The notes under the pieces: generated by a model | The model's input: the letters and a program-made list of their open reading frames with translations, nothing else | Databases searched by the model: none | Told to the model about the DNA's origin: nothing | Assembly (NCBI GenBank): GCA_000004985.1 | Contig: GG738908.1 | Strand: one strand, 5' to 3' | Source of the DNA: Naegleria gruberi | Lineage: Eukaryota | Length of the DNA: 64,000 bases | Position numbers and translations under genes: made by a program | Shown: piece after piece, positions 10,206-60,352 of the stretch | How the letters are laid out: the number at the start of each line of letters is the position of its first letter | Numbering within the stretch: the first letter of the stretch is position 1

Positions 10206-10465
10206 GGCGAAACATTTTTTTGAATCGTTTCAATTGTTGTTCTTCTTGATTAGTAGAAATTTATGGTAAAATTACAAATATGGATAATTTCTTTTTTAGA
10301 TATTTTCAAAAAACATAATTTAATAATAAATTGAACTAGTAGGAATGTAAATTATTGGTCATCTGAAATGATCTTGTTGATAAGATTTGATATTTATTTT
10401 GTGTTGAGATGTGAACTAATTCTCTCACATCGTGAAGTGAAATCAATAATTCTTTGATTGCTTCC

Positions 10466-13400
10466 TTATTGTCTCTTATATTTAATAATAAATTCAGGAT
10501 AACATTGACATTTATCATAGACAATGAATTCTCTATATGAATTAGTTGAAGTATTTGATTGACCAATAACACTATCATAAACTCTATTGTTACTTCCTGA
10601 AATTTCAGGTGGTCTTCTCTGATTATTCATCACTTGTTTTGTGAAATGAATTTGTCTTCCCATTACAACTCTACATAATAATAGAGTATATTCATTGGAA
10701 TGATCAGGTGTACAATATTGATCACTCTTTGAACAATATTCTGCAAAATAAATACCTGCTCCAAATAATCCATTTAAATTTGCAACTCTTTCATCAAATC
10801 CATGTTCTGCAATTGTATTCACAAATTCAGGTTTTGTTCCATGCCATAAATATTTTTCATTCATATTAGAATTTAATCCAATTGTTTTCATCCATTCAAA
10901 TGATTTTGATGTTTTTGAAATATTTTCAGTTTGAACTTGAAGTGAATTAATTGAATCTTGATATGAAATTAAATGATTCATTCTTGATTTGAATGAAGTG
11001 AAAAGTGTTGAATTTTCAATTCTTGAAACACTTGAAACAATTAATTTAGAATAATTAATTCTTGATAATTGATCTCTTCCAGATCCAAGTGTTGCAGAAT
11101 TACACGATACATTCATAATTTCTTGCATTGTATCTTTTAAATATTGTGTAACATCAACAGTGTAATATCTTTTCGAATAAGTTTGGAATGTGTTTCTTTT
11201 CCAATAACTTGGAAGTGAAATTGTTAATTGTTTGGATTTTGATTCTTTAATTTCCTTTTCCATCTTCTCAATTTCAATTTCTTTTTGTTTCAAATTTTGT
11301 AATTTCTTTGAAATTTCTTCACTTTTCTTTGACTTTGAATTTGAAAATTGTTTCTTTTCCTTTTCTAGATTTAAAATTTCAATTTTCAAATTTTCATGAT
11401 TTTTTTTCATTTTCAATTCAAATTCATTCAATTGATTCTGATAATCTTTCAATTCCTTTGATTGATTTTCCATTAATTGAACATGTTTCTGAATTTTAAC
11501 TTCATCTAATAATGTTCCTTTCAAAAAGAATTCATTTGCAAGTGCATCAGATGCAAATGGTCTCAAATTTACATCTGAATTCAAACATTCATCACATAAA
11601 TTATTCAATGATTTGAATTGTTTCAATTCTTGTTCTTTCATACAATTTTTAATTGTTTTACCAAATGCAAACATGTCAGATTTAAATGTTGCTGATGTTT
11701 TTCCATTCACTAATTCAGGTGCTAAATAATCCAATGTACCAGCAATTCCACTTGTTCTTGTGAATAAATTCATTGTTCTACTTGTTATATCTAAACTAAT
11801 ATCAAAATCACCTAAAATAATTGGATAATATTCTGTGATCATNNNNNNNNNNNNNNNNNNNNNNNNNNNNNNNNNNNNNNNNNNNNNNNNNNNNNNNNNN
11901 NNNNNNNNNNNNNNNNNNNNNNNNNNNNNNNNNNNNNNNNNNNNNNNNNNNNNNNNNNNNNNNNNNNNNNNNNNNNNNNNNNNNNNNNNNNNNNNNNNNN
12001 NNNNNNNNNNNNNNNNNNNNNNNNNNNNNNNNNNNNNNNNNNNNNNNNNNNNNNNNNNNNNNNNNNNNNNNNNNNNNNNNNNNNNNNNNNNNNNNNNNNN
12101 NNNNNNNNNNNNNNNNNNNNNNNNNNNNNNNNNNNNNNNNNNNNNNNNNNNNNNNNNNNNNNNNNNNNNNNNNNNNNNNNNNNNNNNNNNNNNNNNNNNN
12201 NNNNNNNNNNNNNNNNNNNNNNNNNNNNNNNNNNNNNNNNNNNNNNNNNNNNNNNNNNNNNNNNNNNNNNNNNNNNNNNNNNNNNNNNNNNNNNNNNNNN
12301 NNNNNNNNNNNNNNNNNNNNNNNNNNNNNNNNNNNNNNNNNNNNNNNNNNNNNNNTGTTATCACTTTCAGTGTAAATTCCTTCAATTTCAATAATATTTG
12401 AATGTTTTAACTTGTTTGTAATTNTCAATTCCTTTTCTAAACCTTCAATTGATTTCTTATCTTTTAAATTATATTGTTTAATTATATGTTTTTTATCATT
12501 TAAATCAATTCCAATAAAAACATTATGATTTCCATTCCAATTTTGAATTGGTTTAATTTCTTTAAACATTTCAGGTGTCATTTCATTAATATTTAAATTA
12601 GATAATAAATCACTTGCCATGTTTGATTTAATATCAAATCCAATTGTCGTTAATTGAAGAAATTTCATTTTAATTTCATTTAATTTTTGAATATTTTCCT
12701 TCAAATTAGATTTTAATTCAATTAAATTAAATTCTTTAATTTGAATTTCATCTTTAATATCATTCATTTCATCTTCATTATTAACATGTTTCAATTCATC
12801 TTTTAATCCTTCAATATCTAGATTTAACATATTTAAATTTCTTGTAATTCTTGTTTTTTGTCTTTGAATGGTTTTAAATTGTTCAGATAAATTTGAATAA
12901 TTATTCATAATATTTATAATATTTTGTAACATTTCATATTTTTCAATTATATATGGAATTGTTTCTTGAATTAATAATTTACAATTTAATTCTTGTTTTT
13001 GATAATAATTATATAATTCTAAAATATTCATTTGATCATTGTCTGAAATTAATACTTTACAATTTGATAATATATTATTTAAATATAATTCTTCTTGTTC
13101 TGATAATTCCATTGCTTTTTGTAAATTATTTGAAAATTGTGTCAAATCAATTTCATTACAATAATTGATAGAGTTTACAATATTTGATAATTGTTTTGTA
13201 ACTTGTTGTAATATTGTTTTAGTTTCATTTCCAAATTTATTATGAGTTGGAACTATATTAATACTGTTTATATTCTTAATAGATTGTTCACTCATTTCAA
13301 TACTGTCAAATAATTCTTGTTTAATAAATTGAGAATTAAATTCATTAAATAATTCTAATTTTTCACTTAATACTTCTAAATAAGATTGTAATTTAAATAA

Positions 13401-14954
13401 ATATTTTTGATTATTAATAAATTCCAATATAGTTCTAATATTATTCATTAAATTATTAATAGTTAATAAATGTTCATTATTTTCAATATTATAATTATTA
13501 CTTGTTAATCTTTCAATTAAATTACAACAATTATTTAAATTATTACAAATTGTTAAATATTCATCTTGAAATTCTTTCTTAATTTGAATAGAAGAAGAAA
13601 ATGATTGAATCGATTCAAATTGTTTTTCAACTTTTCTTCTATTATTATCAACTTGTTGGTTGAGTGAACATAATTTTGAAAATGTTTCAGATGTGATTAT
13701 GAATGATTGTTTTTTCTCTAATTCTTTTCTTTCTCTTTCTATTTTTAGTAAACATTCTTTTTCAATTCTTTCCTTTTCAATTCTTTCCATTTCTAATTTT
13801 TTAATTCTTTCTCTTTCTAATCTTTCCATTTCTAGTTGGTTAAATTTTAATTGTTCCGATTGTTCTTTTAATAGTTGTTGTTCTTTTTCCATGTCACTTT
13901 TAATTGTTTGAATATTAATTCCATTCACTGACCATGTGTAATTTATGTTAATATTTGGATGTTGAAGTAATTGTTTAACAATTTCTAAATGCCCATTTTG
14001 GCAAGCAGTGTATAATGGTGGCTAATATATAAAAATAAAAATTAAATTAAATATTAAATACTTACAAACTAATATTATAAATATAAAAATTAAATTAAAT
14101 ATTAAAATACTTACTTTCTAATATTATAAATAAAATTAAATTAAATATTAAAATACTTACACGCTAATATTATAAATATAAATATAAATTAAATATTAAA
14201 ATACTTACACCCAAATTAACATCAATTGTTTTACATGATAATAATAATTTAACAATTTCTAAATAACCATTTTGGCAAGCAGTGTATAATGGTGTCTAAT
14301 ATTATAAATATAAAATTAAATTAAATATTAAAATACTTACATCCTAATATTATAAATAATATTAAATTAAATATTAAAATACTTACAAACTAATATTATA
14401 AATATAAAATTAAATTAAATATTAAAATACTTACATCCTAATATTATAAATATAAACTAAAATTAAATATTAAAATACTTACAACCTAATATTATAAATA
14501 ATATTAAATTAAATATTAAATTACTTACATCCTAATATTATAAATAATATTAAATTAAATATTAAAATACTTACAAACTAATATTATAAATATAAAATTA
14601 AATTAAATATTAAAATACTTACAACCTAATATTATAAATAATATTAAATTAAATATTAAAATACTTACATCCTAATATTATAAATAATATTAAATTAAAT
14701 ATTAAAATACTTACAAACTAATATTATAAATATAAATTAAATATTAAAATACTTACACCCAAATTAACATCAATTGTTTTACATGATAATAATAATTTAA
14801 CAATTTCTAAATGTCCTTTTTGGCAAGCAATAATTAACATGGTACAACCTTCTGATTTATTATTAACATCTTGTTCATTAAAATAATTATTAAATTCATC
14901 AATTTTGCCGTCTCTCGCAGCATCAAGCGCCTTCTGAAAATCTCGTGTGGCCAT
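10466..14954 (-). CDS. Ankyrin-repeat – long coiled-coil – protein-kinase – PARP-catalytic-domain protein (copy A; interrupted by an assembly gap)
   Basis: Exon 1 (14954..14757) encodes MATRDF..TMLIIACQKGHLEIVKLLLSCKTIDVNLG (ankyrin) and ends at a GTAAGT donor. A 735-bp intron (14756..14022) is built from tandem 47-bp units. Exon 2 starts at 14021 (PPLYTACQNGHLEIVKQLL) and runs through about 430 aa of coiled coil (LEMERLERERIKKLEMERIEKERIEKE...) into a kinase domain: IKQYNLKDKKSIEGLEKEL..KLKHSNIIEIEGIY [N gap 11843..12355] ..ILGDFDIS..GTLDYLAPE. More coiled coil follows, then a PARP catalytic domain (LWHGTKPEFVNTIAEHGFDE..GLFGAGIYFAEYCSKSDQYC..YREFIVYD) with the H-Y-E triad intact. Stop is at 10466. 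Confidence 0.8.
11843..12355. other. Assembly gap (513 N) inside the kinase domain of PARP-gene copy A
   Basis: Run of N characters. The ORFs made of X residues (11835..12401, and parts of 10466..12391 and 11808..13928) are artefacts of this gap. Confidence 0.99.
14022..14756 (-). repeat. Tandem array of about 14 intron-like 46-47-bp units inside intron 1 of PARP-gene copy A, with an embedded 87-nt exon-like ankyrin duplicate (14209..14295)
   Basis: On the gene strand each unit reads GTAAGTATTTTAATATTTAAT(A/T)TT..TATAATATTAG followed by 3 nt. On the plus strand this shows as ACTTAC recurring every 46-47 bp at 14068..14756. The segment 14295..14209 is flanked by ATTAG| and |GTAAGT and encodes an in-frame TPLYTACQNGYLEIVKLLLSCKTIDVNLG (29 codons). 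Confidence 0.85.
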
Positions 14955-15560
14955 TTTTTTAAATTTGTTTTTGTCTACACGTCAAAGGAGAAATGACGAG
15001 TGACTTGACTGAACAATAAATTTGACAGCTCGATCAATGTCAACAATGAAGATCTGTTGGTGATAGAACGAACATAAGACCACTCCACACTGCTAAAACC
15101 CACGAGGGCAATCATTCAGCATGATTAAACAGGAAGATTGGCAACTTCAACAATTGTTGCCATCATTTACTCACAAAAATCTAATAAAAGCGTGAATTCT
15201 TCTCCTTCAATCGCAACAACAATACCACAATATTTAAAAACTCGTGCAATATTCATCAATTTCATTCAATTAAATATTTATATAGTATCGAATCCTTGCG
15301 AGAGAAGACCTTTCTACTACTATTGAATCTTACAACAATCTGATTCAACACTTTAAAACCTTGCTTAAATAAACATAATTTTTTAATAAGATTAAATGGT
15401 GATGGGATTATTTTACACAGTTATTGTGAAGAATTATTTTAGGAGAGTTGTCTCTGTGAAAAGAGATAAAGGTAGAGTAAATTATTGTAAATGATGTCAG
15501 ACGTAACAAGACGAATAAGTGGTGGTGGTGGTGAACAAGTAAGGATTCTCTCATTGTAAA

Positions 15561-17062
15561 TTACAACATGTTCATATCTTTCATATAATCTACGATAATA
15601 CTGTTTTTGACATCATCCAAAACTTTTTTCATTGTACCTGTATCTGTGGCACAAGTTATGTGATGATAAAGTTGACGTCCTGTCTTTGAACTTTGAGATT
15701 TGGCAGCTCCAGCTCGAGAAATGAATTGATCCATAATGTAAGTTCTGGCCTTACCAACATCTCGTCCACCTGTATATTCAGGGAAACACTTGTCCAAATC
15801 CTTAACTTTGATTTTCTCTTCAAACAAGTCATTCTTATTGAAGAAAATAATAAGTGGAGTTGTTTTAAAGTAACGAGATTGACAAATTTCAGTAAAAAGA
15901 GTCAATGATTCAATCATACGATTCATATCCTTATCTTCAAATAAAACTTGATCGTATTCACTCAATGCAGCAACGAAAATAATTGCTGTAACATCATCAA
16001 AACAGTGAATCCTTTTTAAAATAACATCAATTGACATTAATTAACAATGATGATGAATGGTAAATAAACAGTTTTCACACAAGTGACAATAACCATCAAT
16101 AACAATATAGATCAAAGATTTAGCCAAATAGTATGTTAATTAACAAGACACAATAACAAAAACTAACCATTTTCTTCTTTCGTTTCTTTGACCACCAACG
16201 TCAATCATCTTGAATTTGTATCCTTCAATACTAAAATCTGCTTCTACGATACCAACTGTCTTGACTCTTGAACGGAGAACATCTTGTTGGGTTGGTTGAT
16301 AATTGTTACTTGTCAATCTTTCAATATCTCTCAAATAACTATTACAAAATAACATAAAAACATTATATTCGAAACACATTCGAAACCAATAGAAACTTAC
16401 TATTCAGCAGAATCATTCAATTGATATTCACTTCTTCTCCTATAAGCTTCTTGAATACCAGCATCAGACCACAGTAATTTAATATCCTTTCCGAGTTCAG
16501 GTGAAATTATACTTCCAGCATTGAGAATAATTTGTTGTTCTGGAATTCTGGTAAACTTTTCTGCACGTTCGATATTTGATGAATTTGAAAATGAAATTTG
16601 TGGATTCAGAGTTTGCATTGCTTCGATCAAAACTCTGATGGATTGTAAAGTATTTCCATAGATAACATCTTTGAAACGTATACATTCTTCTGGTGTGTAG
16701 CCTTTGTGGTGAATAATTTTCATTTGTTTAAAGATGGTGGATTTCCCTGATTCACCTATTGTTGTTGATATTTAGATTAGTTTCGTCATGTTTAGTTTTG
16801 TTGTTGTTGTTGTTGATATTTAGATATTATACGATAAATAATCATTGGTATTATTCAATTATTGGTATTGTTATTCACAATCGTTCACAAAAAGTATGGA
16901 CGAAACACTTAAGAATATATCACACGAAACTAAACTAAACTTACCAGCTCCTAGTAACAAAAGTTTCAACTCTGACTTTTGTTTTTGATTATCCCTAGTC
17001 AATTTAGCATTAATTTCCTTGTTTTTGGTGGATTCTGCTGATTGTTCTTTAAAGCAAGGCAT
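15561..17062 (-). CDS. Heterotrimeric G-protein alpha subunit, four exons
   Basis: Proposed structure join(17062..16945, 16755..16401, 16338..16168, 16011..15561), giving 364 aa. Exon 1: [16 protein letters not shown]. The G codon is split by a 189-bp intron (GTAAGT..AATAG), and exon 2 continues [27 protein letters not shown] 62-bp intron precedes exon 3 ([20 protein letters not shown]). A 156-bp intron (GTTAGT..AAAAAG) precedes exon 4 ([35 protein letters not shown]..). G1-G5 motifs are present. The C-terminus ...DYMKDMNML is unusual. Confidence 0.85.
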
Positions 17063-17838
17063 CGTTTGATGTGTTAAAAATTTTAGTCTAGATTCGAATA
17101 GTAATAAATTGTTGTTGTAGTAATATTTGATGAGAGATAAAATATTCTTGTTGTTGAGACTGTTGTGGACGTTTTGATTTTTTTTTCTTTCTGCTTGTTC
17201 ACAAGTCACCTGACAGCTGTCAAGGCGAGAAAATTAAACGGGAAAGAGGCAAACAGTCTATCGGCATTCCTGCTGAAAAATATTGCCAATAATTACCCAG
17301 CATGAGATTTACTTTGGAATAATTGTAACGAATTTTTGAATATCTCTCATCTTCTCAGTTGACTAATTTAAATATATTTAAAAAATATTTAATATTTAAA
17401 AATTGGCAAATTGATGATGGTTGGTAATCAAGTGGCAACAAGAGTAAAGGTTGAAAGGTTTCAACAACTATTCTAATTGATAATACTAAACTGAAAATCA
17501 TTTCCTTATTCAAAACCTTCCGCATAGTTTCCATAAATGGGACTTGTTACAATGAGCAAAGAATTATTCCAATAACTGCATTATTCAAGATTCAAAGATG
17601 AAGCTGAAATGTTGAATGTTCTTGTCATTTCCCGCCAAATTACTACAATTCAAAATGAAAAAAAGCAAACAACAACAAGGCTTTGAGTGTTTGATGGTTT
17701 GTTGTCATTAGCCCTTGAGATTTAGATATTGAGACGAAAATCCGCAAAGAAAATAATTATCTAGTTAATTAATTAGTAAAATTGAAAAATTACAAAAATG
17801 TGTGTTTTATATTGGAAGAAGTATTTGTTCAGTGAAAT

Positions 17839-18858
17839 TTAGAAAATTCTGAATTGTAAATTGGTGCTATTAGTCTTTTTGTTGTTGTTATTATTATTAT
17901 TGTTATTGTTATTGTTGTTTGGCAATGGTACGAATTTCATAACAATAGCAAAGATGCAACCACCCAAGATGGCCAAAGCAACTAACAAACACAAAACAGC
18001 ACAACACTTATCAGTTTGAATTCTCCTCATGAAACTGGTAATTTCCTTTTGAGCTCTTTTCACATTGCTTCCGAGAGCATCCATTTCTTCATCAATTCTC
18101 CTCAATTGGTCTCTTTGTTGTCTCAGTAAATCAGCAGAATCAGTTGCCAAAGCAATAGTTTCCTCTGATTTCTTATTCAAACGATCGATAATGTCCAAAC
18201 ATTCCTTCTGAGTTGAAAATACTTCAGAAAATAATTCCTTTTCAATTTCATCGTGCCTTTGACGTTGTTCCTGTGTCAGATTGGCATTTCCCTTGTACAT
18301 ATTTGTCACATCAGCATCACTGTTTCTCTTAACTTCCACAACATCATCTTCTTCAATGGCATTGGATGAATTCTTTCCTTCATTCAATTTGTTTGCAAAT
18401 GTAAAGAAACCTTCCTTTTTACGAACACCACCACTATTTGTTGCTGATGATGATGAATTTGATGTTAAATTGGAATTTGTTGATTCTAAAGCAGAGTTAT
18501 TTGATGATTTACCATCATTCAACCCCTTTGCTTTAGTTTCAATAAATGTTTTTGATTGTTTGTAACTTGCTCTCAACTTGGCAATAATTTCCTTGTGTTT
18601 CTTCTTGGTATCGGATACTTGATTTTCAACGGATGGATCATTCTTTGTCAAGTTATTAATCTTGTTATATAATTTCCTACATTTTTCCAATAATTCTTCA
18701 ATAGTTTCGGATAGTGTGGAAATTTGTGAGGAAATAAAATTTGGATCCGATTGATTGGTAATGTTTAGACGACGAAGAGTGGTGATGTTTTCTTCAATCT
18801 TTGACTCGACACTTTCCAACTCGTGTGTGTAGGTTGAAAGTTTTTCGAGACTGCTCAT
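17839..18858 (-). CDS. Syntaxin-like Q-SNARE (t-SNARE) with a C-terminal TM anchor and a poly-Asn luminal tail
   Basis: 339-aa single-exon ORF. N-terminal helical region, a SNARE heptad motif (IALATDSADLLRQQRDQLRRIDEEMDALGSNVKRAQKEITSFMRRIQ), a TM segment (CCAVLCLLVALAILGGCIFAIVM), then LPNNNNNNNNNNNNNKK. Confidence 0.7.
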   Translation of the reverse strand: MSSLEKLSTYTHELESVESKIEENITTLRRLNITNQSDPNFISSQISTLSETIEELLEKCRKLYNKINNLTKNDPSVENQVSDTKKKHKEIIAKLRASYKQSKTFIETKAKGLNDGKSSNNSALESTNSNLTSNSSSSATNSGGVRKKEGFFTFANKLNEGKNSSNAIEEDDVVEVKRNSDADVTNMYKGNANLTQEQRQRHDEIEKELFSEVFSTQKECLDIIDRLNKKSEETIALATDSADLLRQQRDQLRRIDEEMDALGSNVKRAQKEITSFMRRIQTDKCCAVLCLLVALAILGGCIFAIVMKFVPLPNNNNNNNNNNNNNKKTNSTNLQFRIF

Positions 18859-19037
18859 TTTTTGTTGATTTTTTTGACTGGGATGACAGATGACTTGAAG
18901 CCAAATTTCGAATTGATTTCGAATGAATTATTAGAATTTTAATTATTAAATAAATTATTCTCTACATGGAATTGAAACTTGAAAAATTCAGCTTTGTAAG
19001 AAGGATTGTTAATAATTCTTGTTTTAGTAAAATGAAT

Positions 19038-19156
19038 GGCTACGGCCATATCACGATGAATGCACCTCATCCCGTCCGATTTGAGAAGTTAAGCATCGTC
19101 GAGCCACATCAGTACTGAGGTTGGAGACAACTTGGGAACCTGTGGTGCTGTAGTCT
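19038..19156 (+). rRNA. 5S ribosomal RNA gene (dispersed copy)
   Basis: GGCTACGGCCATATCACGATGAATGCACCTCATCCCGTCCGATTTGAGAAGTTAAGCATCGTCGAGCCACATCAGTACTGAGGTTGGAGACAACTTGGGAACCTGTGGTGCTGTAGTCT matches the universal 5S consensus (GCCATA.C, GAA.GCACC..ATCCCGTC.GA.CT, GAAGTTAAGC, AGTACT, GGGAA). Helix I pairs 5' GGCTACGG with 3' CTGTAGTC. It is followed at once by the Pol III terminator TTTTT (19156-19160). Confidence 0.85.
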
Positions 19157-25868: not shown

Positions 25869-26209
25869 ATTTTGTTTTTCAATGATAGTTAGTATTATAT
25901 ATTTACTAGATAATTAACAAGTAACAATTTCTCGCGAGCAATAGTTTTCTCTTATTACCCAATGAACAAGATAATCCCTTCCTAGTACTTTTTTTTAATA
26001 ATGTCTATTCATTAATAACCGGCAATTTACGGTTTTTTGATTCTTGTTGATGGTATCTCTTCTAATCATCTGATAAATAGTAATAGATGCAATTGATGAA
26101 ATGAAAAAAATATTCATTGAGCGGGAAGATTGGTTTGAGGCTTTCTGATGAACAGCTTCGGGATGATAATATTTAATTTTTATCAGTTGAATTTGCTGTT
26201 CATTATTTA

Positions 26210-28814
26210 TTAAGCAATATTGATGGAGGATATTTCGATTTTATCGTTCAGATGAGAAATTCCTTTAAGGGATTTTTGAAGAGTGGTATGATAATTGTGG
26301 AGAGCCTGAGCCAAGTTTTGACTCTTCTGATTGGTGAGAGTATCAAGAATAGTAAGCAAACGATTCGTAATAATTTGATCCTCTGGATACTTATTCAAAT
26401 GATCTTGAAGAATATTGACCGATTCTTGGATTCGGTCCAGAACTTGAGAATCAGACATCGAAGAAACAGTCTTTGGATCAAAGATTGCAAAGGCAGCTTC
26501 AAAATCTTTGAACTTTTTGTTTGCTTTTTGCTGTTCCAGTTCATACATCCATTCTGATAGGTATCAATTTGTAATGAATTGAATTAGTGAAATTATTAAT
26601 TACTAACAAACTTACCATCTTTTTCATAACTATTCTCCTTAATGACTTCATAGACAACTGTTGGAGTTTTGCCTTCGCTATTCTCCAAAACAAATCTTTC
26701 GACAGGTCTCACAACAAATGCAGAAGTGGCCTCAGTGCAAACACTCTCACTATCTGCAAGGATCTTACAACCAAGTGAACAACCTAGAATGGAGAGGTTC
26801 TTTGAATTGGTAACCATTGGACCGACGATTGAGTAATATCTCAAATTGTTTGTTCCCAAATTACCCACATTGGCCATTCCAGAGCTAATACCGATAGAAT
26901 AACTTGATAATTTACCAAGGTTGTCCAAAACTTTGGAAACCTTGAGAGCACTTTCCATAGCTGCCAAGTTTTGTTTCTTCTTACAATCAGCAAATGAGAG
27001 TTGGAATTCTTCAACTGATAGGATTTGCAAATCAGCTTGCAAACTCTTTGCCAAAACACTCAATCCTGATGCTACCTTTGCAAATAAATTCGTTACTTCC
27101 AAAGGATTTAACTTTCCAAATTCATTCAAATGAATGTAGACGATACTGACTGGCTTGATGGAAAGACCCAATTTGAATAATCCACCACCAGATTTCAAGT
27201 CATGTTTGGAAGATTTCAGAGAGCTGTGGGCTGAGCTTCTATTAGAGAGTGAATGTCTGCTCTCTTTCATGCTTTCATTATTCTTATCCGTTTGTGATTG
27301 CTCCTGTTCAGCCTTCTCCATATTTCTCAACTGATTGAAAATTGTCTCTGGTAAGAAACTCTTAAATTCATTCAACCAATTCACCATTTCGTGTAAGTCT
27401 TCATAAATTCTATTGACTTCCCTAAATTTACTTGAAATAAAGTTGACATTCTCCAAATCAAACTTCTTAATGAGGAAGAATTGACTTTCCAAATATCTCA
27501 ATGGTTGAGTTATTAAATATCCGATACCAATACTGAGAATCAAACCAACAATCACCACTGCTACTGCCACACCAACAGATATACCAGTGTTAATATTGGT
27601 AGTCTTGGCAATATCACTCTTGTAAACAACAAGGAAAACATTCCATCTGATATTTTCTAAAGAGAAGGATAATCTGGAAATTAGATAATCGACTCCCTTA
27701 CTAGTGAATTCAAAATCTGAGGGAGAAGATGTCAGATTTGAGTACTTGGCAGCTATTCCTGACATGAGAGCTCCAGAATCTTTGGCAATTAGATCAAATA
27801 TCTTGACACGAGACTTGCTGTCAGCTGCTGTGGTGTTAATCGAGCCTCCAATGACGAAGTCATTCGTTTCTGAAACGAGTACATAACCGTCTCCAATTAG
27901 AGTTAATGTTTTAAGGAACTTTTCAATATTCAACAATGACAAGTTGACCTTTGAAATACCAATTGTCTTTTTTGTTCCGTTCAATGCCAGCAAGTATGGA
28001 TCATACAATTTTACAGAATAATAAATACAAGTTGTTGAATTGACAACAGTGTAAGGCAATCCATAAACCCTATCCGTTTGATACAAATCAAAAAAGTTGA
28101 AACTTGTAACCCAATATGCCAATGAAGTAATTACAAAAGGAGTTGTCTGATTGACCACCAAATTAATAAAAGATCCATCAGTTTCATTTGCATACCATTG
28201 TTCAACTCCAATATATCCCTTCGGTTTGACATAATAAGTGAACGATTGTTTTGGTTTTCCATCGGGAAAGATTGTCAAATTGAAATAGGTATTCACCTCA
28301 TCTGGAAAGAACAACCCAACAGCTGATGGATAGAATATCTGATTCTTGGAAAATAAGTAACTCAAATCAGGTTTTCTTCCAATGAGTCCTCTATTGAAAT
28401 CTTCAGCCAAAACTCGAGCCAAGTGAGCTGAAGGAGAAATTTCTCCCTTCAAGAAGGCCATTACATTCTCTCCAACTTTATGGATTAAATCAGTAGAAAG
28501 TGAGTCCAATGCTTGAGTGGAACCAATATACGAAGCTAACCAAATGAAGAAGGAACAGGTAATGAGGAGAATGATCATAATGATAATGATGGTCAATCGC
28601 ATGGAGAACCAACCTTCCATTTTGGTTGGAATTTTTGGTTTGACCTTTTGTCCAGAGACGAGTTCTTCATTTTCATGATTGAGGCCAGCAGAAGAACCCT
28701 ATTGTTGATTTCAGTTTCGAATAGTGCAATTTGTAGTGCATTTAGTCAGTTGCTTTGAAATGTATTGTTACTTACAGAAAACTCTGAAGGTGATGCAGGT
28801 GCAATTTTAGACAT
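26210..28814 (-). CDS. Membrane receptor with an extracellular Cache/CHASE-like domain between two TM segments, a coiled coil, and a C-terminal degenerate class-III nucleotidyl-cyclase homology domain; three exons
   Basis: Proposed structure join(28814..28776, 28698..26616, 26553..26210). Exon 1: MSKIAPASPSEFS. A 77-bp intron precedes exon 2, which encodes GSSAGLNHEN..KMEGWFSMRLTIIIIMIILLITCSFFIWLA (TM1), an extracellular region of about 300 aa, TM2 (ISVGVAVAVVIVGLILSIGIGYLI), a coiled coil, and a cyclase-like core (VSIVYIHLNEFGKL...SIGISSGMANVGNLGTNNLRYYSIVGPMVTNSKNLS). A 62-bp intron (26615..26554, GTAAGT..TATCAG) precedes exon 3 (E)WMYELEQQKANKK.., stop at 26210. Confidence 0.65.
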
Positions 28815-29443
28815 TTCTTTGATATTGAATCTCTAAGACATTAGAACTAAACTTCATCTGCCAAATTGTTAAGTGACAGCAATCACTAACCATCAATACA
28901 GAGATACTTCTCTTACATCATTCAAAATTGCCTTGAACAGTAGTGACAATTTTTGGCGCCAATTCGAATGGCCATTTTCGTTTTGCATCTCGAAATAATG
29001 TGAAGTGAAGTGATGGGAAATATTTACAACTAAGGTTCACCCGCGTCGATACAATCAATATTCGCCTTAGTATGGAGATGAATACATTTTGTTATTGAAT
29101 TGGAGCTCTGGATAAATTGTTTTGTGGGTTACTATTAACATATTTTAATTATTTGTTATTCAATAGTTTCGCGCCAAGCTAAAACCGTTACATAAATGAA
29201 AATCTTTAGATAAAATATTTTGAAAATAAATAAATTTATTATTAAAAGAATAAAAAATAGCATCACAGGACGGACTTAGGCCTTCCTTCGTGAAAGAGGC
29301 AACTCCACGTATGTTTTTGATAACAACAAGACTTTAACATTTCCTTTAACACAACCAATATTCACAATTGGGGAATTTTTATTGTTTAAATTATAGACTA
29401 CTTGATGATGGACTATTTACATGGAAGATATACACTAGGAAAT

Positions 29444-29764
29444 TTAAGGAATGGTGGTGATTGTTGGCTGTCCTATTGATGTCGTATGAATATGATCAAT
29501 TGGATCCTTGGTAAATGAGGATGATTTTCTCATCATGATTGCCAATATCAACATTCCAGCAATACCACTCAAACATACCAGAAAACTACCAATGGCAAAG
29601 ACAATCTCTGCAGCTCCAACATTGTATGAAACTTGAGAGTTTGGTGAATTGGTAATGGTAATCAAACCAAATATCATCAAGCAAATGAAGGCTAAACAAG
29701 TGAGTGATGAAGTTACTCCAAAAGCAATCATCATTAATTTACTACGTTCTGCGTCGAGGGCCAT
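29444..29764 (-). CDS. Hypothetical small membrane protein (106 aa, two TM segments)
   Basis: ATG-initiated ORF with two hydrophobic helices (MMIAFGVTSSLTCLAFICLMIFGLITI; IVFAIGSFLVCLSGIAGMLILAIMM). No domain recognised. Confidence 0.35.
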   Translation of the reverse strand: MALDAERSKLMMIAFGVTSSLTCLAFICLMIFGLITITNSPNSQVSYNVGAAEIVFAIGSFLVCLSGIAGMLILAIMMRKSSSFTKDPIDHIHTTSIGQPTITTIP

Positions 29765-29931
29765 TTTTTAATATTGGGTTTGAAGGATATTTCATTGAGG
29801 ATGTAGTTGGATTTATCCAAAATTGCATTGTTGCAATTTGGAAAGTATCCATTTATTGATTCTTCTCATTTCTGTGGATGTCACGAAATCGTCATCTGGT
29901 AAATTTCCAATTTTGGTACATGATTTTCAAG

Positions 29932-31817
29932 TTATTGATCTTTCACATAGGCGACCCAATTGGTGTTGTAATCGTTCCAATTAGATTTGTTGTTATGTTT
30001 TCTTATTAATCTGCCATATGCTCTATCATACATGTCCCACAAAACTTCATGCTTTTTGGCATCCAACTTGTCATAATTCATAGATTTGATAAATTCCTCA
30101 AATTCAATCTTTCCCACACGGTAATATTTTGGTTTGAGTCCCAATTTGAATAGCAAGTATCTGGACAACTTCATTTCACCAATGGCAGTACACAACTTAC
30201 AAGGCGACTTGATGACATTGGCCAAGTGAAATTTGAGCGACATATCCTGAATACCCTTCTTGGTTTCATCTGACATTCTCTGTTTGAAATATTCGTTAAA
30301 CTTTTGATCGTCATCACAATAAGGTTTGATATGTTGTGCCATCTCTGTTGGTGATTTAAAATCATGAATGCTAATGAAACTATCTTTTGGAAAACCATAC
30401 TCATTGATATTGGGAGCACCTCGATAGATTGACACTAGCTTTCCACCCAATCCCAAAGGAGTGAAACCTTCAAAGAACTTTTCAGTAATGTAATCATCCA
30501 ACATGCTATTTTCAAATGCTAGATAGAATTTGCAACTTCTTGCCAATTCTGCAACCTTTCCTCCTTGTTCATGAGCATTTCTTCCACATCCTTTCCAAAA
30601 CAGCAGAATATTAGCACTTGATTCAGGTATTTGAAAATCAAAGTCAACTTACCACCATATTGTCTAACTGGAAGGACATTGCTAATTTCCTTCACAACAT
30701 CCATTCTCTCCTTGACACAATTACTGATGAATGCACAAATGCAATGTGGAGGAATTCTAGAACTATCTCTAAATTCAAAATCCATTTTCGTATAGAAATA
30801 GGTTGTCCAAATACTACACTGTGCACTCCAACACATTGTCATGTCCATGTGAGATTGGTCATTTCTGGCATGTGGTTCAATTTCTCTAAGAGCATTAGGT
30901 TCGTTACAGAGAAATACATTGATTGGTCGCATGGCCAACCAAGTTTTCAAAGCAAATTCCTTATCAAATTGTTGTGACAATTCAACACTTGACAAATCTG
31001 AATTTGATTTTACAAAATTGTCAATTTCCTCTTGGACTTTTCTTTCCTCCTCAACTTTTTCCAATCCAAGACCTCTATCTCTATATTCCAAATGTTCAAT
31101 ATTGGCATCGAGACTAATTCCTTCTGCCTTTCCACTTGTGAAATAACTTCTCGAGTCTTCATATGGAAAAACTTGACATGCAGTTTGTTTACAGTGAGCT
31201 TGATTGTACTTTCTAAAGAAACCAAACCAATTCGGTCTCGTAGTCTGCTCCTCACCGAAACCATATTGAATTAACTGGGTTTTTACACTTGGATCGAATT
31301 TGTAGCCACCTATGGATTGAGTATTGGTCAACTTGTCCAAATACCAACCATAGGTTCCTTCCTTTGACTGTTCATAGGACAACATGTTTTGTGCCAATCT
31401 AAAGAATGGAGAATGGCTCTCTAGTAGTGGATTCTCACTTAACTCTTCTAATTCAGTTATTTTCAATGAAGGTTGTTGTTCGAGTGAAACTTTCTCTGGA
31501 TGAATCGAAGTCGAATCCACTCTACTCTTTCTACTCAATATGAATACGATGAAAACAACGTAGAAAGATGAAAAGATGAATAGAGAGGCTTTCCAAGGTG
31601 TAATTTTCATTTTTTTGTTTCGATAAGTGATAAGGTTAATGTTCCAACCTCCATGGAGGATTGTAAACAGTTGAAAATAGGGAATGTTATTCTGGATTTT
31701 TGACTTTTGTTCTATGGAGGATACATGGTCAGAAACAGACTCGTCTATTGAGAGTTTGGATTCCAAAGAGGTCTTGGAAAGTTTTGGTAAGTTCTTATTC
31801 GAGTTGAGTTCTGTCAT
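29932..31817 (-). CDS. Alpha-1,3/4-fucosyltransferase (glycosyltransferase family 10), type-II membrane topology, two exons
   Basis: Proposed structure join(31817..30653, 30590..29932). Exon 1: MTELNSNK.., a signal anchor (ASLFIFSSFYVVFIVFIL), a stem and the catalytic domain, ending ..PVRQYG(G) at a GTAAGT donor. A 62-bp intron spans 30652..30591. Exon 2 begins GCGRNAHEQGGKVAELARSCKFYLAFENSMLDDYITEKFFEG, the GT10 signature motif. Confidence 0.8.
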
Positions 31818-32046
31818 TTGAACAAACAATCAAAATAAACTTTGTGCGAAACAATTCAACAAAAAATCAAGATGAGTGATTCTAATCCTTCACACTTTAA
31901 GTTTTGGGGAACAGATTGGGGAATTTGCTTTAAAGTTCTTAGAGGTCAAACAGATGATACGAATATTAATCCTGAAGATAAACTTTACAAAATATAAGCT
32001 ATTCATCAACGGTATTGTTTAATATTTTGTAAATGAATTCCATCAT

Positions 32047-33094
32047 TTAAAAGAGAAAATAAAACAATATGGCAAATATCCAATAAATATTGACAACTGA
32101 CATTCCAGTTGTGGATGCATCATTTCGTGCAGTAATATTCATGGTGGTAAATGTTGAGAATGCATATGGTTGATTAATGAACACAACTGAACAATTCTTG
32201 CAATTAGCTCTATTACTATCCAACCAAGAAAGGAAAGTGACAGCATTATAAACGACAGCATGTACTTTCTTATCAAGGATTAATTTCCATTGAGTTTCTG
32301 GAGTTCCAAAGGAAATGTACTGAGCTGCTGGTAAATTAGTTTTGACATCGATTTCATAAGTAGTTCCTGCGTATGTGGCAACAATGACATTTGACTGATT
32401 GAGACTCTTGTAGGTCGATAATTCAAGTTGTGGATCAAGTTCTGTTCTAAGGAATGCTTTACTAGTTGTTCCCCAAGGACATTGAAAATGAACTGCTTTT
32501 CTTCTGGCATCATTTTGTTCAACATTGACACTAATCACGTCACCTGCCAAAATTCAAGTTCAACAAAGATCCAAATTACTTACAAATTCCAGAATTGACA
32601 GCATTCTTCATTGTGTCAAAGAATCCAAGAGCTGTGGTATTCACATATTTGACATAGGTCTGTAATTTACTTCCGTAATGATTGTTAATTTTCTTGACAA
32701 GTGTGTTGGCAACTAAAAGTCTGGCATCTTGGAATGGATAACCCAGACCACCTAGATCGATGCACATGACTAGTCCAGTACGGTCAGTGAATGGATTTTT
32801 GGTTGGCCAAGAAACTGGAGTATAGGTACACTGTCAGGTGTCAAATCGAATATTTAGTTTCAATATTTTGACATTTGTACTTACTTGTGGCACTTGGAAA
32901 TACATCAGTTTGAAGAAGGCATCCATGAAGGTTGTATCTGTTATCATTTCTTGAGTGGCAGCGTCAATAGCATCAGAATAATCTTGAGTGACAGGTACAG
33001 CGTGTGTTTCGTATTCCTGCCCAATAGTTACTTGGCAGTTTAGCAATAAAACACTGCATAGAATAAGTAAAGATAGCAATATTGAATATTTCAT
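32047..33094 (-). CDS. Secreted protein with an N-terminal signal peptide and a C-terminal hydrophobic GPI-anchor-like tail, three exons; function unknown
   Basis: Proposed structure join(33094..32885, 32830..32584, 32543..32047). Exon 1: MKYSILLSLLILCSVLLLNCQ (signal) ...FQVPQ, then GTAAGT. A 54-bp intron precedes exon 2 (CTYTPVSWPTKNPFTDRTGLVMCIDLGGLGYPFQDARLL...NSGIC), a 40-bp intron precedes exon 3 (DVISVNVEQNDARRKAVHFQCPWG...NDASTTGMSVVNIYWIFAILFYFLF*). Confidence 0.5.
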
Positions 33095-34340
33095 TGTTAT
33101 AATGTTGTTGTTTTTTATGATTTTTATTTCAATTGACAGCTTTTGAATTTTGACAGGCCAAGCTCTTAGTAGTGAATATTCTTAATGTTTCTTAAAAGAA
33201 CTAAATACCGCTCTGCATTTCGTTATAAGAGTTCCTTAACTGTCGTTGCTAAAGTAATCAATTACCAAATTTGTATAATTATAAATGTCAGCAATCATTG
33301 ATAAGAAAGTGAGCGGATCATTAAATTGTCTTTCTCGTTGTGATACGACCAGCTTGGTATGGTGTTGATATCTTTAAAAACGCAAGTACATTGTTATTTC
33401 GTCCACTTTCCAATAACATTATGCAAGTCAATGAACCAAACGAGTTGTAATTAATGCATTAAAGTGTTGATACTATGGCTATAAGGCAACATTTATATCA
33501 TGATTGCAAATGATGTGAAAAAATAAACATTGACATTTGTGAAAATTTCGGACGAAAGTGGTTTACTAGCACAAAATGTTCAATGAAACATTTATAAACC
33601 TTCAGTTCCAAAAATATTGAATCATTTTCAAATTGTAAAGAAATTTGAAATTTATTCTTGTAAAATTTGTGTCTGCCTTCTCGATTAGTTGTTTGAATGG
33701 TTTCTTCCTCCTTCTTTGATGTTTCTCGACAAGTTAAAATACATGTATTCATTTAATCTTTTGCCTTTCATATAAACTCTATATCAATTTGATTCGCATA
33801 TTCAATGCATCTATTGCTTCAATCATGTGAATTGGCGCCAAAATTGATGATGATGAAAACCTTAATCAAAAAAAAATACTCAAACAAGATCACACCATGC
33901 GATTTATTCTCTCTAGTTGTCAACAGCCGACGGAGAAGATGAATTTGTATTATTTAAAAAATTAGCAATAGTAGTAGTAGTGGATCTTGGACTGATGGTT
34001 TTGTGAAGAAAATAGTATCATGATTTCAATCCTAAGGGAAAAGAAGAACAGGAGAGACAATGGTCCGAAGTGTGCACCGATCCAAACATAACTTTCTTGT
34101 TCTCTCCTAAATTTCAAAAAACATTCCTCCTCGCTTGACAAAAGTCTTGGTTCTGCTTTTTCATTATATTTTAATGATTGCAATAATATTATTATTATTT
34201 AAACACCTGATTGCTTGGTGACCTTACGGAAAGGAATTTGGTGGGAATTCTAATAATCATTACTTTGGTTAAATAATGGTCATCATTTTCAATGTTGGCA
34301 TTGATAGAGCTGTCAAATTATTAAAGTCAAATCAAAAAAA

Positions 34341-37070
34341 ATGGCAGGAGATTTTCGGAAGGCGTTTTATGCTGCGGAAAAAGGCAAAATTGATGAATTT
34401 AATAATTATTTTAATGAACAAGACGTTAATAAATCACAGAGAGGTGTTACCATGTTATATATTGCTTGCCAAAATGGACATTTAGAAATTGTTAAATTAT
34501 TATTATCATGTAAAACAATTGATGTTAATTTGAGTGTAAGTATTTTAATATTTAATTTAATTTTATATTTATAATATTAGACTGTAAGTATTTCAATGTT
34601 TAATATTTTTTATATTTAAAATATACATTAGACTGTAAGTATTTGATATTTAATATTATTTTATATTTTTAATATTAGTATGTAAGTATTTTAATATTTA
34701 ATATTTTTTATATTTTTAATATTAGTATGTAAGTATTTAATATTTAATATTATTTTATATTTATAATATTAGACCGTAAGTAATTAATATTTAATTTGAT
34801 ATTATTTATGTTTATAATATTAGTTTGTAAGTATTTAATTTTATTTATATTAATAATATTAGATGGTAAGTATTTTAATATTTAATATTATTTTATTTTT
34901 AATATTAGACACCATTATACATTGCGTGCCACTATGGACATTTAGAAATTGTTAAAGAATTACTTCAACATCCAAATATTGAAATAGATAGCGAATTGTC
35001 AGTGAATGGAATTAATATTCAAACAATTAAAAGTGACATGGAAAAGGAACAACAAATATTACAAGAACAAATAGAACAAAAAAAGTTGAAACAACTAGAA
35101 ATGGAAAGATTAGAAAGAAAAAGAATTACAAAATTAGAAATGGAAAGAATTGAAAAAGAACGTTTATTAAAAATAGAAAGAGAAAGAAAAGAATTTGAGA
35201 AAAAGCAACCATTCATAATCACATCTGAAACACTTTCAAAATTATGTTCACTCAACCAACAAGTAGATAATAATAGAAGAAAAGTTGAAAAACAATTTGA
35301 ATCAATTCAATCATTTTCTTCTTCTATTCAAATTGAGAAAGAATTTCAAGATGAATATTTAAGAATTTGTGATAATTTAAATAATTGTTGTAATTTAATT
35401 GAAAAATTAACAAGTAATAATTATAATATTGAAAATAATGAACATTTGTCAACTATTAATAATTTAATGAATAATATTAGAACTATATTGGAATTTATTA
35501 ATAATCAAAAATATTTATTTAAATTACAATCTTATTCAGAAGTATTAAATGAAAAATTAGAATTATTTAATGAATTTAATTCTCAATTTATTAAACAAGA
35601 ATTATTTGACAATATTGAAATGAGTGAACAATCTATTAAGAATATAAAAAGTATTAATATTGTTCCAACTCATAATAAATTTGGAAATGAAACTAAAACA
35701 ATATTACAACAAGTTACAAAACAATTATCAAATATTGTAAACTCTATCAATAATTGTAATGAAATTGATTTGACACAATTTTCAAATAATTTACAAAAAG
35801 CAATGGAATTATCAGAACAAGAAGAATTATATTTAAATAATATATTGTCAAATTGTAAAATATTAATTTCAGACAATGATCAAATGAATATTTTACAATT
35901 ATATAATTATTATCAAAAACAAGAATTAAATTGTAAATTATTAATTCAAGAAACAATTCCATATATAATTGAAAAATATGAAATGTTACAAAATATTATA
36001 AATATTATGAATAATTATTCAAATTTATCTGAACAATTTAAAACTATTCAAAGACAAAAAACAAGAATTNAAGAAATTTAATTGTGANNNNNNNNNNNNN
36101 NNNNNNNNNNNNNNNNNNNNNNNNNNNNNNNNNNNNNCATGAAAATTTGAAAATTGAAATTTTAAATCTAGAAAAGGAAAAGAAACAATTTTCAAATTCA
36201 AAGTCAAAGAAAAGTGAAGAAATTTCAAAGAAATTACAAAATTTGAAACAAAAAGAAATTGAAATTGAGAAGATGGAAAAGGAAATTAAAGAATCAAAAT
36301 CCAAACAATTAACAATTTCACTTCCAAGTTATTGGAAAAGAAACACATTCCAAACTTATTCGAAAAGATATTACATTATTGATGTTACACAATATTTAAA
36401 AGATACAATGCAAGAAATTATGAATGTATCGTGTAATTCTGCAACACTTGGATCTGGAAGAGATCAATTATTAAGAATTAATTATTCTAAATTAATTGTT
36501 TCAAGTGTTTCAAGAATTGAAAATTCAACACTTTTCACTTCATTCAAATCAAGAATGAATCATTTAATTTCATATCAAGATTCAATTAATTCACTTCAAG
36601 TTCAAACTGAAAATATTTCAAAAACATCAAAAACATTTGAATGGATGAAAACAATTGGATTAAATTCTAATATGAATGAAAAATATTTATGGCATGGAAC
36701 AAAACCTGAATTTGTGAATACAATTGCAGAACATGGATTTGATGAAAGAGTTGCAAATTTAAATGGATTATTTGGAGCAGGTATTTATTTTGCAGAATAT
36801 TGTTCAAAGAGTGATCAATATTGTACACCTGATCATTCAAATGAATATACTCTTTTATTATGTAGAGTTGTAATGGGAAGACAAATTCATTTCACAAAAC
36901 AAGTGATGAATAATCAGAGAAGACCACCTGAAATTTCAGGAAGTAATAATAGAGTTTATGATAGTGTTATTGGTCAATCAAATACTTCAACTAATTCATA
37001 TAGAGAATTCATTGTCTATGATAAATGTCAATGTTATCCTGAATTTATTATTAAATACAAGAGACAATAA
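34341..37070 (+). CDS. Ankyrin-repeat – coiled-coil – (kinase region missing or in gap) – PARP-catalytic-domain protein (copy B, inverted paralog of 10466..14954)
   Basis: Exon 1 (34341..34535): MAGDFRKAFYAAEKGKIDEFNNYFNEQDVN..TMLYIACQNGHLEIVKLLLSCKTIDVNLS, then GTAAGT. A 373-bp intron (34536..34908) is made of eight 47-bp intron-like units. Exon 2 from 34909: TPLYIACHYGHLEIVKELLQHPNIEID, then coiled coil that is near-identical to copy A. After ..TIQRQKTRI comes a 50-N gap (36088..36137), then HENLKIEILNLEKEKK.. and the PARP domain, which differs from copy A at only a few residues (e.g. SKTFEWMK against SKSFEWMK). Stop at 37070. About 80 bp of 3' flank are also shared with copy A. Confidence 0.8.
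34536..34908 (+). repeat. Tandem array of eight 46-47-bp intron-like units forming intron 1 of PARP-gene copy B
   Basis: Units read GTAAGTATTT(T/C/G)A(A/T)(T/G)TTTAATATT(A/T)TTTTATATTT(A/T)TAATATTAG, each followed by exactly 3 nt (ACT, ACT, TAT, TAT, ACC, TTT, ATG). The first exon-2 codon is ACA. Confidence 0.85.
36088..36137. other. Assembly gap (50 N) at the position where copy A carries its kinase domain
   Basis: Run of N characters. The adjacent base at 36070 is also N. Whether copy B lacks the roughly 1.5-kb kinase region cannot be decided from this sequence. Confidence 0.99.
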
Positions 37071-37705
37071 GGAATCAATCAAAGAATTATTAATTTCACT
37101 TCACTCCCTGATGTGAGAGAATTACATCTCAACACAAAATAAATATCAACAAATTTATAAAGTTATGGATCGTGAATTTGGTGAAAAGAATTAAGGAAGG
37201 CTGCAATTAGTTCTCTGATGGAGTAAAACTCTCCGTATGGAAGTACAACGCTTTGTTGTAATTTGACTTTAAATTTCTACTAATTAATTGCATTGTAAAA
37301 CTAATCGATCTCAAATAAATCCTACAAATAGGATGAATCAGATTCGAATTGAGGGTGTTGAAGACGTTCCTGATTACAGTTTCAGTGAAATTTCAATCAA
37401 AACATTTCGTTGCTGATTAGGAAATGCTTTTCTTAGTCATTTCGAATATTTCTTTACTAATGGCCAATGAAAGAAACACAACAGAAGTAGGAGAAACAAA
37501 GTACTACCCAAGAGGTGGTATCTTTAAGCCATCAACGTAATATCCGACTTTACCCGCTCTTGATGGGATGAAAGTAAGAAAAAATGTCGAAACGAAATGA
37601 GACGAAACTCTCGCTCATTCAACACAACAAATCATCAGACGAAACTTATCAAGTTCATATAAAATCATCATCAACGGAGAAAGGAAACATTTCAAGATTT
37701 TTCTT

Positions 37706-39703: not shown

Positions 39704-39870
39704 GGAGGAGAGGACTAGAGTTTGTTTTTATGAATTACCCCATTAAGATGACTTGTGGCCATAGCTGTCACTTGTCCATATTTGTAATTTATTAATATGC
39801 ACTTTGCGAAGACGAACGAAGAATAAGGTGGAAGATCTGATGCGCCAAGTCCGTCAAAATATTGAAAAAA

Positions 39871-60239: not shown

Positions 60240-60352
60240 CCTTGTAAGCATCAGTGTTCAATACTAAACACTTGACAAATATGGAACTTTATAGTTCAAT
60301 CCGGAGTTGTACTATTTCGGAGTTCACTTCCGTTAGCCACAAATTAAAAAAA

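Follow-up and report, generated by a model that had tools for sequence, protein, structure and literature searches.

What keeps one end of a duplicated gene almost uniform between its copies, and how does the other end come to differ in exon number and structure? The question is raised by a stretch of 64,000 nucleotides (nt) from Naegleria gruberi (contig GG738908.1; hereafter the window), which belongs to a 259,034-bp scaffold of strain NEG-M, has a G+C content (GC) of 32.7% and contains four open reading frames (ORFs) letter-identical to NAEGRDRAFT_73897, 73898, 81644 and 53120. Within it, two copies of a gene for a protein with ankyrin repeats, coiled coils, a protein kinase and a PARP domain, copy A on the minus strand and copy B on the plus strand, lie inverted to each other with 19.4 kb of unrelated genes between them. 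The duplication itself is ordinary genome biology; most of the interest lies in tandem arrays of intron-like units, spaced by putative single codons, that separate the ankyrin exons. We consider it moderately probable that the locus combines an inverted duplication, gene conversion of the 3' part and intron-plus-codon arrays that are spliced unit by unit.

An ankyrin–kinase–PARP gene in inverted duplicate

Repeat finding and blastn within the window recovered the two copies as three inverted segments: A 10387-11398 against B 37149-36138 (98.0% identity over 1017 nt), A 12833-14387 against B 36081-34535 (89.9% over 1575 nt) and A 14390-14967 against B 34908-34328 (84.9%). The inverted homology is thus confirmed and far above chance, which bears out a preliminary description of the locus as an inverted duplication of an ankyrin–kinase–PARP gene. 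As expected of an inverted segmental duplication, the loci are opposite in orientation, at least 1 kb long and at least 90% identical, with unique sequence at the flanks of each. By the same methods, nothing else in the window matched the arms except an unrelated tandem pair at 37.9-41.6 kb.

Parts of that description need qualification. The near-identity with only a handful of amino-acid changes holds for the PARP part, with 4 amino-acid differences over 310 codons, but not for the last ankyrin repeat and coiled coil, with 33 over 387 aligned codons. The common 3' flank, put at about 80 bp, comes to 79 nt, but these include two 5-nt indels, and weaker colinear islands extend to ~490 nt past the stop codon in A (10466-10468) and ~315 nt in B. 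The 5' exons, called diverged, do differ, by 5-19% over the 5' halves; the bulk of the apparent divergence, however, lies in tandem arrays of unequal length; A also has one extra exon. No mention had been made of the arrays, of the hybrid nature of that extra ankyrin exon, or of the family to which the gene belongs, which comprises four genes or more.

The copies are two genuine loci

Five runs of N interrupt the window (11843-12355, 12424, 36070, 36088-36137 and 60394-61134). Both copies do have gaps at the kinase region, as previously stated: 513 N plus a single N in A, and 50 N plus a single N in B. Where A has its 513-N gap, the paralogue NAEGRDRAFT_70343 (P0005) has ~75 residues. The stretch 12425-36069 is gap-free and holds the 5' half of A, the whole intervening block and the 5' half of B in one continuous assembled sequence. 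The 5' halves differ in exon number and array structure, and the 3' halves, which are 10 substitutions and two indels apart, run on into different genes: by Pfam, A has a G-alpha gene upstream and an MFS transporter downstream, and B an unknown gene on the other strand upstream and RGS genes downstream. Because both structurally different 5' halves and the block are ungapped, and the 3' halves enter different unique flanks, the duplication is real, as had been argued. Alleles of one locus would share flanks; A and B do not and are therefore not alleles.

An artefact, either a misjoined haplotype or a collapsed repeat, might be suspected from the gaps in both copies, from the heterozygous diploid state described for Naegleria (PMC9928731) and from small scaffolds of 37 and 51 kb that duplicate portions of this scaffold. 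An allele, however, would have both flanks in common with its partner, whereas A and B have neither in common beyond a few hundred degenerate bases. Set beside the single ungapped stretch, the unlike exon and array structures and the divergent 3' exits, these flanks make it exceedingly improbable that one copy is artefactual. The kinase missing from B is an unassembled gap; a clean deletion was rejected on finding that both contig ends stop within the homology, the left one in low-quality bases. The longest exact match between the copies, 238 bp, reaches right up to the gap in B, and near-identity of the kinase region is the best reading of why both copies are gapped.

Two observations on the assembly stand apart from this. 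Small NEG-M scaffolds duplicate parts of the window (17839-18858 and 13632-14714; 56075-57151), probably as alternative haplotypes of the heterozygous diploid; the window's EEP-family gene has a counterpart of at least 90% identity, NAEGRDRAFT_76196, on the 51-kb scaffold. The fifth N run, 60394-61134, is a 741-N gap inside a long ORF (60254-62965).

Arrays of intron-like units spaced by exactly 3 nt

On the coding strand, tandem GTAAGTA…ATTAG units fill the intervals from one ankyrin exon to the next. A has ten units, an 87-nt ankyrin exon and four further units; B has eight units and no middle exon, and hence one ankyrin exon fewer. The 22 units are 36-48 nt long and 16 of them are distinct in sequence, and all 22 carry the canonical GTAAGTA donor and ATTAG acceptor. 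Other probable introns in the window measure 40-62 nt and have GTAAGT donors; judged by length and splice sites, each array unit has the form of a normal-sized Naegleria intron.

The units and the spacers between them have evolved in different ways. Unit interiors contain 1% GC, are 89% alike and have accumulated at least 20 substitutions and at least eight indels. The 12 splice-site columns show no substitution, against 7.5 expected at the interior rate (P ~5e-4). Despite the indels within units, the spacer is exactly 3 nt long in 19 of 19 cases. Spacers contain 23% GC, have all four bases at each position, are essentially unrelated to one another (36-42% alike) and include no stop codon among the 19. 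Exon 1 (198 nt in A, 195 nt in B) and the second ankyrin exon (87 nt) are likewise multiples of three, and any pairing of donor with acceptor therefore stays in frame.

Are the triplets spliced in and translated?

In the reading that we favour, each unit would be removed as an intron of its own and each 3-nt spacer would be translated, with predicted junctions …GTTAATTTGGGT-TTT-GAT-GTT… in A and …TTGAGT-ACT-ACT-TAT… in B. The spacers sit precisely between '…DVNLG' and 'TPLY…', that is, in the hairpin loop between ankyrin repeats. A canonical ankyrin repeat has 33 residues. Leaving out the spacer residues yields 29-residue repeats with a 2-residue loop; including them gives a 32-residue repeat at the second junction of A, as in the first junction of NAEGRDRAFT_70343 (GNRDS). 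With the spacer residues included, A scores 108.7 bits against the Ank_2 profile; when they are left out, it scores 85.5.

Related gene models bear on the same point. NAEGRDRAFT_76596 (P0050), a public model for a relative on a 37-kb scaffold, reads '…DVFDVDFD-TPLYTACQNGYLEIVKLLLSCKTIDVNLG-RKF-PPLY…', which equals the conceptual splicing of copy A. In this model a SNARE N-terminus of 97% identity is fused to sequence that matches A at 100%, and we count the model as precedent rather than proof because the SNARE fusion makes an ab initio origin possible. At the corresponding places NAEGRDRAFT_70343 carries short, repetitive loops, NRD and TDYRDY. In a predicted fold of NAEGRDRAFT_76596 the spacer residues lie between helix pairs; the mean pLDDT of 64 denotes low confidence, and the support is weak.

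Several observations weigh against splicing of each unit. For B, the Ank_2 score is 64.8 bits with the spacer residues and 66.1 without. NAEGRDRAFT_76596 is a chimera with the neighbouring SNARE gene and may be purely ab initio. The 36- and 39-nt units are shorter than all other introns seen in the window, and unit interiors lack the TGAC-like branch motif found in several of those introns. Moreover, the footprints of U1 and U2AF make a 3-nt distance between splice sites sterically awkward; introns so spaced could not be recognised at once and would have to be spliced sequentially. These points, apart from those on the gene model and the branch motif, also favour an alternative in which each array is a single long intron (461, 187 or 373 nt) running from first donor to last acceptor, the inner sites being unused by-products of a minisatellite and the triplets absent from the mRNA. 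Tandem Repeats Finder does call the arrays as ordinary 46-47-nt minisatellites. Unused inner sites, however, should have decayed like the interiors, and they show none of the expected changes; nor does the alternative fit the constant spacer length, the exon-like GC and lack of stop codons in the spacers, the shortfall of the repeats from 33 residues once the triplets are removed, or the 23 bits by which the score of A then falls. We regard the single long intron as a tentative possibility. We infer with moderate confidence that the units are spliced individually, and rate it somewhat better than an even chance that this happens on at least some occasions.

If the one-codon exons are truly spliced in, they would represent the densest known packing of introns, one per codon, and a clean natural case of introns multiplying through tandem duplication. 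The length of the loop would then change codon by codon, with 94% of the repeat unit hidden from translation, and the locus would bear on the origin of new introns and on the minimum exon size for an intron-defined spliceosome. A further step, that the arrays serve as a splicing device for varying a binding loop and so couple a variable ankyrin sensor to conserved kinase and PARP effectors, seems unlikely. Were it true, combinatorial splicing could yield up to 2^9 x 2^3 (A) or 2^7 (B) in-frame variants of the hairpin loop, DNA slippage would reshape the loop repertoire between copies and strains, and the sensor–effector layout would be that expected of a protein in host–pathogen conflict.

Growth of the arrays and turnover of the ankyrin end

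In array 1 of copy A, three units recur together as a higher-order repeat (45 nt-TTT, 43 nt-GAT, 43 nt-GTT). As this repeat includes the triplets, arrays grow by block duplication at the DNA level. The second ankyrin exon of A is a hybrid: over its first 36 nt it agrees with the third repeat at 33 positions, and over its last 51 nt it agrees with the first repeat at all 51. Such an exon is the expected product of unequal crossing-over between ankyrin exons misaligned at their common GHLEIVK motif, and B would then represent either the two-repeat ancestor or a reciprocal deletion. After such a crossover both arrays of A would have been alike at first; they now have ten and four units with different triplets, which argues for fast turnover. 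Much of the change at the 5' end would stem from arrays of one normal-sized intron plus exactly one codon, placed at the inter-repeat loop: slippage or unequal crossing-over within an array would add or remove loop residues by single codons with the frame kept, and unequal crossing-over between ankyrin exons would add or remove whole repeats.

Two candidates may account for the triplets having diverged more than the introns: a binding loop under diversifying selection, and the insertion of intron copies between pre-existing codons. The latter connects to a different origin for the arrays, in which a mobile introner-like intron, or reverse splicing of a resident intron, placed introns between successive codons. 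Insertion between different codons predicts what is seen, triplets mutually unrelated and units 89% alike. However, the higher-order repeat of array 1 takes in the triplets, as block duplication of DNA would; no unit copy lies outside A and B in the 64-kb window, even with up to 3 mismatches allowed, and many near-identical copies in unrelated genes, the hallmark of introners, were thus not found there. No terminal inverted repeats were seen, and a 3-bp target-site duplication was considered and rejected, only units B2 and B4 carrying identical flanking triplets, which is no consistent signal. A full-text literature search also yielded no report of introners in Naegleria. Insertion of introns is therefore an improbable source of the arrays, and duplication of intron-plus-codon blocks remains the reading that we prefer.

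When metagenome contigs were scanned for three acceptor-NNN-donor junctions, more than 120 loci came up, all (GTAA)n microsatellites or constant-triplet minisatellites; the pattern was ill chosen and the scan uninformative. A few contigs contain AT-rich ~48-nt repeats with TTAG-NNN-GTAAGT and a constant triplet (L053 1502-1598, L078 11224-11320 and L087 at ~816 on the minus strand), which might be intron-plus-codon repeats of other eukaryotes or just minisatellites.

A divergence gradient and probable gene conversion between the copies

Identity between A and B, taken per 100 nt, is 0.81-0.89 over A 14021-13722 and 0.95-0.99 over A 13721-12833, and it reaches 0.98-1.00 in the PARP part. Divergence between the copies at synonymous (dS) and nonsynonymous (dN) sites, as estimated by the Nei-Gojobori method, is dS 0.085 and dN 0.147 for exon 1, 0.171 and 0.112 for the first 100 codons of the last exon, 0.048 and 0.021 for its next 292 codons, and 0.023 and 0.005 for the second coiled coil and PARP domain. 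When pooled, synonymous differences amount to 10.7 over 87 sites (12%) in the 5' part against 11.0 over 329 (3%) in the 3' part, a ~3.7-fold difference (Fisher p=0.002). The ratio dN/dS is 1.7 in exon 1, then 0.55, and 0.24 in the PARP part; because of this drop along the gene, selection accounts for part of the gradient as well. Both copies look functional, having kept open frames and a dN/dS of 0.24-0.55 outside exon 1.

The flanks and a third sequence help to separate the age of the duplication from that of its 3' similarity. Beyond the stop codon only 79 nt align well, followed by islands of 81-90% identity with large indels between them, and the non-coding flanks thus decay directly beside a coding 3' end that is 99% identical. 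A recent simple duplication would leave flanks as alike as synonymous sites; here the flanks look old and the 3' body looks young, which is the signature of conversion. Exon 1 is identical at 51 of 63 positions between A and B, 55 of 63 between A and NAEGRDRAFT_70343 and 52 of 63 between B and NAEGRDRAFT_70343; in the 5' half, that paralogue is as near to A as B is. The synonymous gradient, the decayed flanks and this equidistance together strongly suggest gene conversion between the copies, with a tract edge near the stop codon, and they support the earlier proposal that conversion has homogenised the 3' part.

A recent duplication followed by no conversion would instead ascribe the gradient to weak constraint or positive selection at the ankyrin end, combined with repeat instability. 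The fall in dN/dS from exon 1 to the PARP part agrees with this, and the worst-aligned 100-nt windows coincide with coding tandem repeats of the coiled coil. Synonymous divergence too differs along the gene, however; synonymous sites in the PARP region have diverged far less than the non-coding flanks next to it; and A and B are in their 5' halves no closer to each other than either is to a paralogue on another scaffold. On these grounds we judge duplication without conversion distinctly unlikely. Two features of the data count against conversion: the dS gradient rests on ~22 synonymous differences in all, and the comparison with a third sequence, in which A, B and the paralogue are equidistant, covers the 5' half only, so that the case for conversion is not a phylogenetic one.

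The history that we favour would accordingly begin with a genuine inverted duplication, not very recent, of a functional member of the family. Conversion between the inverted arms would hold the 3' ~3 kb of A and B at 95-100% identity, and the 5' ankyrin-coding end would escape homogenisation and change fast. Inversion of the bracketed block is plausible as well: recombination within the arms, for which exact matches of up to 238 bp offer a substrate, would flip the block and leave two intact hybrid genes, and the locus may be polymorphic for such an inversion.

Two smaller features belong to the same arms. Coding tandem repeats of 15, 24 and 39 nt, at 13755-13834 and 35072-35193, encode the ERLERERIKK part of the coiled coil; a 5-residue indel distinguishes A from B there, in the least similar 100-nt window. 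Adjoining A is a 98-codon ORF (9909-10205, minus strand) with no Pfam match, of which a degenerate relic occurs in the flank of B (37288-37416, plus strand), and the original duplication therefore extended ~0.5 kb beyond the gene.

Domain architecture and gene family

Pfam finds three ankyrin repeats and a PARP catalytic domain in this gene, together with a protein kinase that the gap truncates. The ankyrin repeats (PF12796/PF00023) score 64.8-108.7 bits for Ank_2 against a cut-off of 27.3, and the PARP catalytic domain (PF00644) 83.8 bits against 26.7. The H-Y-E triad is kept, WHGT, GIYFAE and YREFIVY aligning with HGS, GIYFAE and YAEYVIY of tankyrase-1, which is also the best solved-structure match of this domain (E=3e-17); with its active-site residues conserved, the domain is a predicted enzyme. 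A shows both edges of a protein kinase domain around the gap. As the gap removes the core, its assembled C-lobe fragment reaches 24.2 bits for PF00069, against a cut-off of 31.7; in the paralogue NAEGRDRAFT_70343 the motifs HCDIKPEN and DFD are present, and a precomputed match to PF00069 exists. Pfam detected no SAM domain in the copies; a kinase and coiled coils lie between ankyrin repeats and PARP domain instead.

The public protein set contains no entry for either copy, no match reaching 90% identity, presumably because the gaps break the reading frame. The locus thereby flags two N. gruberi genes left unannotated owing to assembly gaps. Apart from NAEGRDRAFT_76596, the relatives in this species include NAEGRDRAFT_70343, on a 371-kb scaffold, with ankyrin repeats, a coiled coil and a kinase followed by a frameshift; a coiled-coil and PARP protein without a kinase (P0002); a PARP-only model (P0003); and a ricin-lectin and PARP protein (P0006) on the same scaffold as A and B. 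A Naegleria fowleri-like homologue (L121 2431-7763; ENA ERZ2098899, NODE_869) contains a coiled coil, kinase and PARP domain. It has neither ankyrin repeats nor intron arrays and hence provides no outgroup for the arrays. This homologue lies directly downstream of ADP-ribosylglycohydrolase ORFs, an ADP-ribose writer beside an eraser.

Comparison with known systems

The closest parallel to the arrays is intron gain by expansion of intron-containing tandem repeats, described in Cryptococcus (Sharpton et al. 2008, PMC2395259). There as here, the unit bears both donor and acceptor, copy number varies among close relatives, and slippage or unequal crossing-over is the proposed engine. Unlike those repeats, the Naegleria units have an exon part of one codon and a minimal intron, occur up to ten in a row, and have exon triplets far more diverged than the introns. 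Introns have also reportedly arisen in human tandem arrays, to go by the title of a 2007 PNAS article by Zhuo and colleagues that PMC2812944 cites.

Micro-exon genes of Schistosoma contain symmetric exons of 3-81 bp between introns of up to 5 kb and encode small secreted proteins (PMC10526429). Like the Naegleria arrays, they have runs of very short exons, each a multiple of 3 in length and hence combinable in any way without loss of frame, and their products are variable; the putative Naegleria exons, by contrast, are all 3 nt, the introns ~44 nt, and the encoded loop lies within the folded ankyrin domain of a large intracellular enzyme. A literature search yielded no report of consecutive one-codon exons with minimal introns, nor of introners or microexons in Naegleria; it found only isolated 3-bp exons, in animals.

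At recursive splice sites (AG|GTAAGT) of long animal introns, acceptor and donor abut directly and leave an exon of zero length; the role of such sites is the removal of very long introns. The Naegleria acceptor similarly almost abuts a strong GTAAGT donor, which implies stepwise removal, but the spacer is always 3 nt rather than zero; 3 nt would stay behind at each step, and the introns are tiny.

Two further comparisons concern the protein and the arms. The protein resembles tankyrase in having its ankyrin domain on the N-terminal side of the PARP domain; unlike tankyrase, the Naegleria gene has 2-3 ankyrin repeats, no SAM domain that Pfam could find, and a kinase and two coiled coils in between. 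Inverted duplications homogenised by gene conversion are familiar, for instance as palindrome arms. The Naegleria arms resemble these in that their high identity is limited to part of the arms and their edges are diverged. They differ in being small (at least 3-5 kb), in their spacer of 19 kb and in having a homogenised tract that ends inside the gene.

Feature coordinates and neighbouring genes

Table 1. Features of the two copies, their flanks and the block between them (window coordinates).
Feature	Position	Strand	Description
Copy A	10387-15053	-	Ankyrin / coiled-coil / kinase / coiled-coil / PARP gene including homologous flanks
Copy A distal 3' flank islands	9972-10277	-	Short colinear matches to B 37256-37385, 81-90% identity; overlap ORF 9909-10205
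Copy A proximal 3' flank	10387-10465	-	79 nt aligned to B 37071-37149, two 5-nt indels
Copy A last exon	10466-14021	-	Third ankyrin repeat, coiled coil, gap-interrupted protein kinase, second coiled coil, PARP; from ORFs either side of the gap and Pfam
Copy A gap	11843-12355		513 N within the kinase domain; extra single N at 12424
Copy A array 2	14022-14208	-	Four intron-like units, 43-46 nt; triplets CGT, AAA, TTT
Copy A second ankyrin exon	14209-14295	-	87 nt, 29 codons; hybrid
Copy A array 1	14296-14756	-	Ten intron-like units, 39-45 nt; triplets TTT GAT GTT TTT GAT GTT GAT TTT GAT
Copy A exon 1	14757-14954	-	198 nt; ATG 14954-14952; first ankyrin repeat
5' flank homology island upstream of A	15019-15050	-	91% identical to B 34319-34288
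Intervening unique block	14968-34327		G-alpha, SNARE, 5S rRNA, one large G8/CEMIP/EGF/VWD gene, unknown, GT10 fucosyltransferase, another unknown (Pfam)
Copy B	34285-37149	+	Ankyrin / coiled-coil / kinase / coiled-coil / PARP gene including homologous flanks
Copy B exon 1	34341-34535	+	195 nt; first ankyrin repeat
Copy B array	34536-34908	+	Eight intron-like units, 36-48 nt; triplets ACT ACT TAT TAT ACC TTT ATG
Copy B last exon, first part	34909-36087	+	Last ankyrin repeat and coiled coil; contig end falls mid-homology
Copy B gap	36088-36137		50 N replacing the counterpart of A 11399-12832 (coiled-coil end, kinase, start of second coiled coil); single N at 36070
Copy B last exon, second part	36138-37070	+	Second coiled coil and PARP; stop 37068-37070; 99% identical to A 11398-10466
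Copy B 3' flank	37071-37385	+	79 nt common to A, then degenerate colinear islands

The bracketed block contains no N. It had been credited with nine genes; annotation with Pfam and Rfam gives about six protein-coding genes and one 5S rRNA gene instead. The latter (19038-19156, plus strand; Rfam 5S_rRNA, 105 bits) stands solitary among the protein-coding genes. To the right of B, a tandem pair of RGS-domain genes occupies 37706-39703 and 39862-41792 on the plus strand, with ~79% nucleotide identity between the two.

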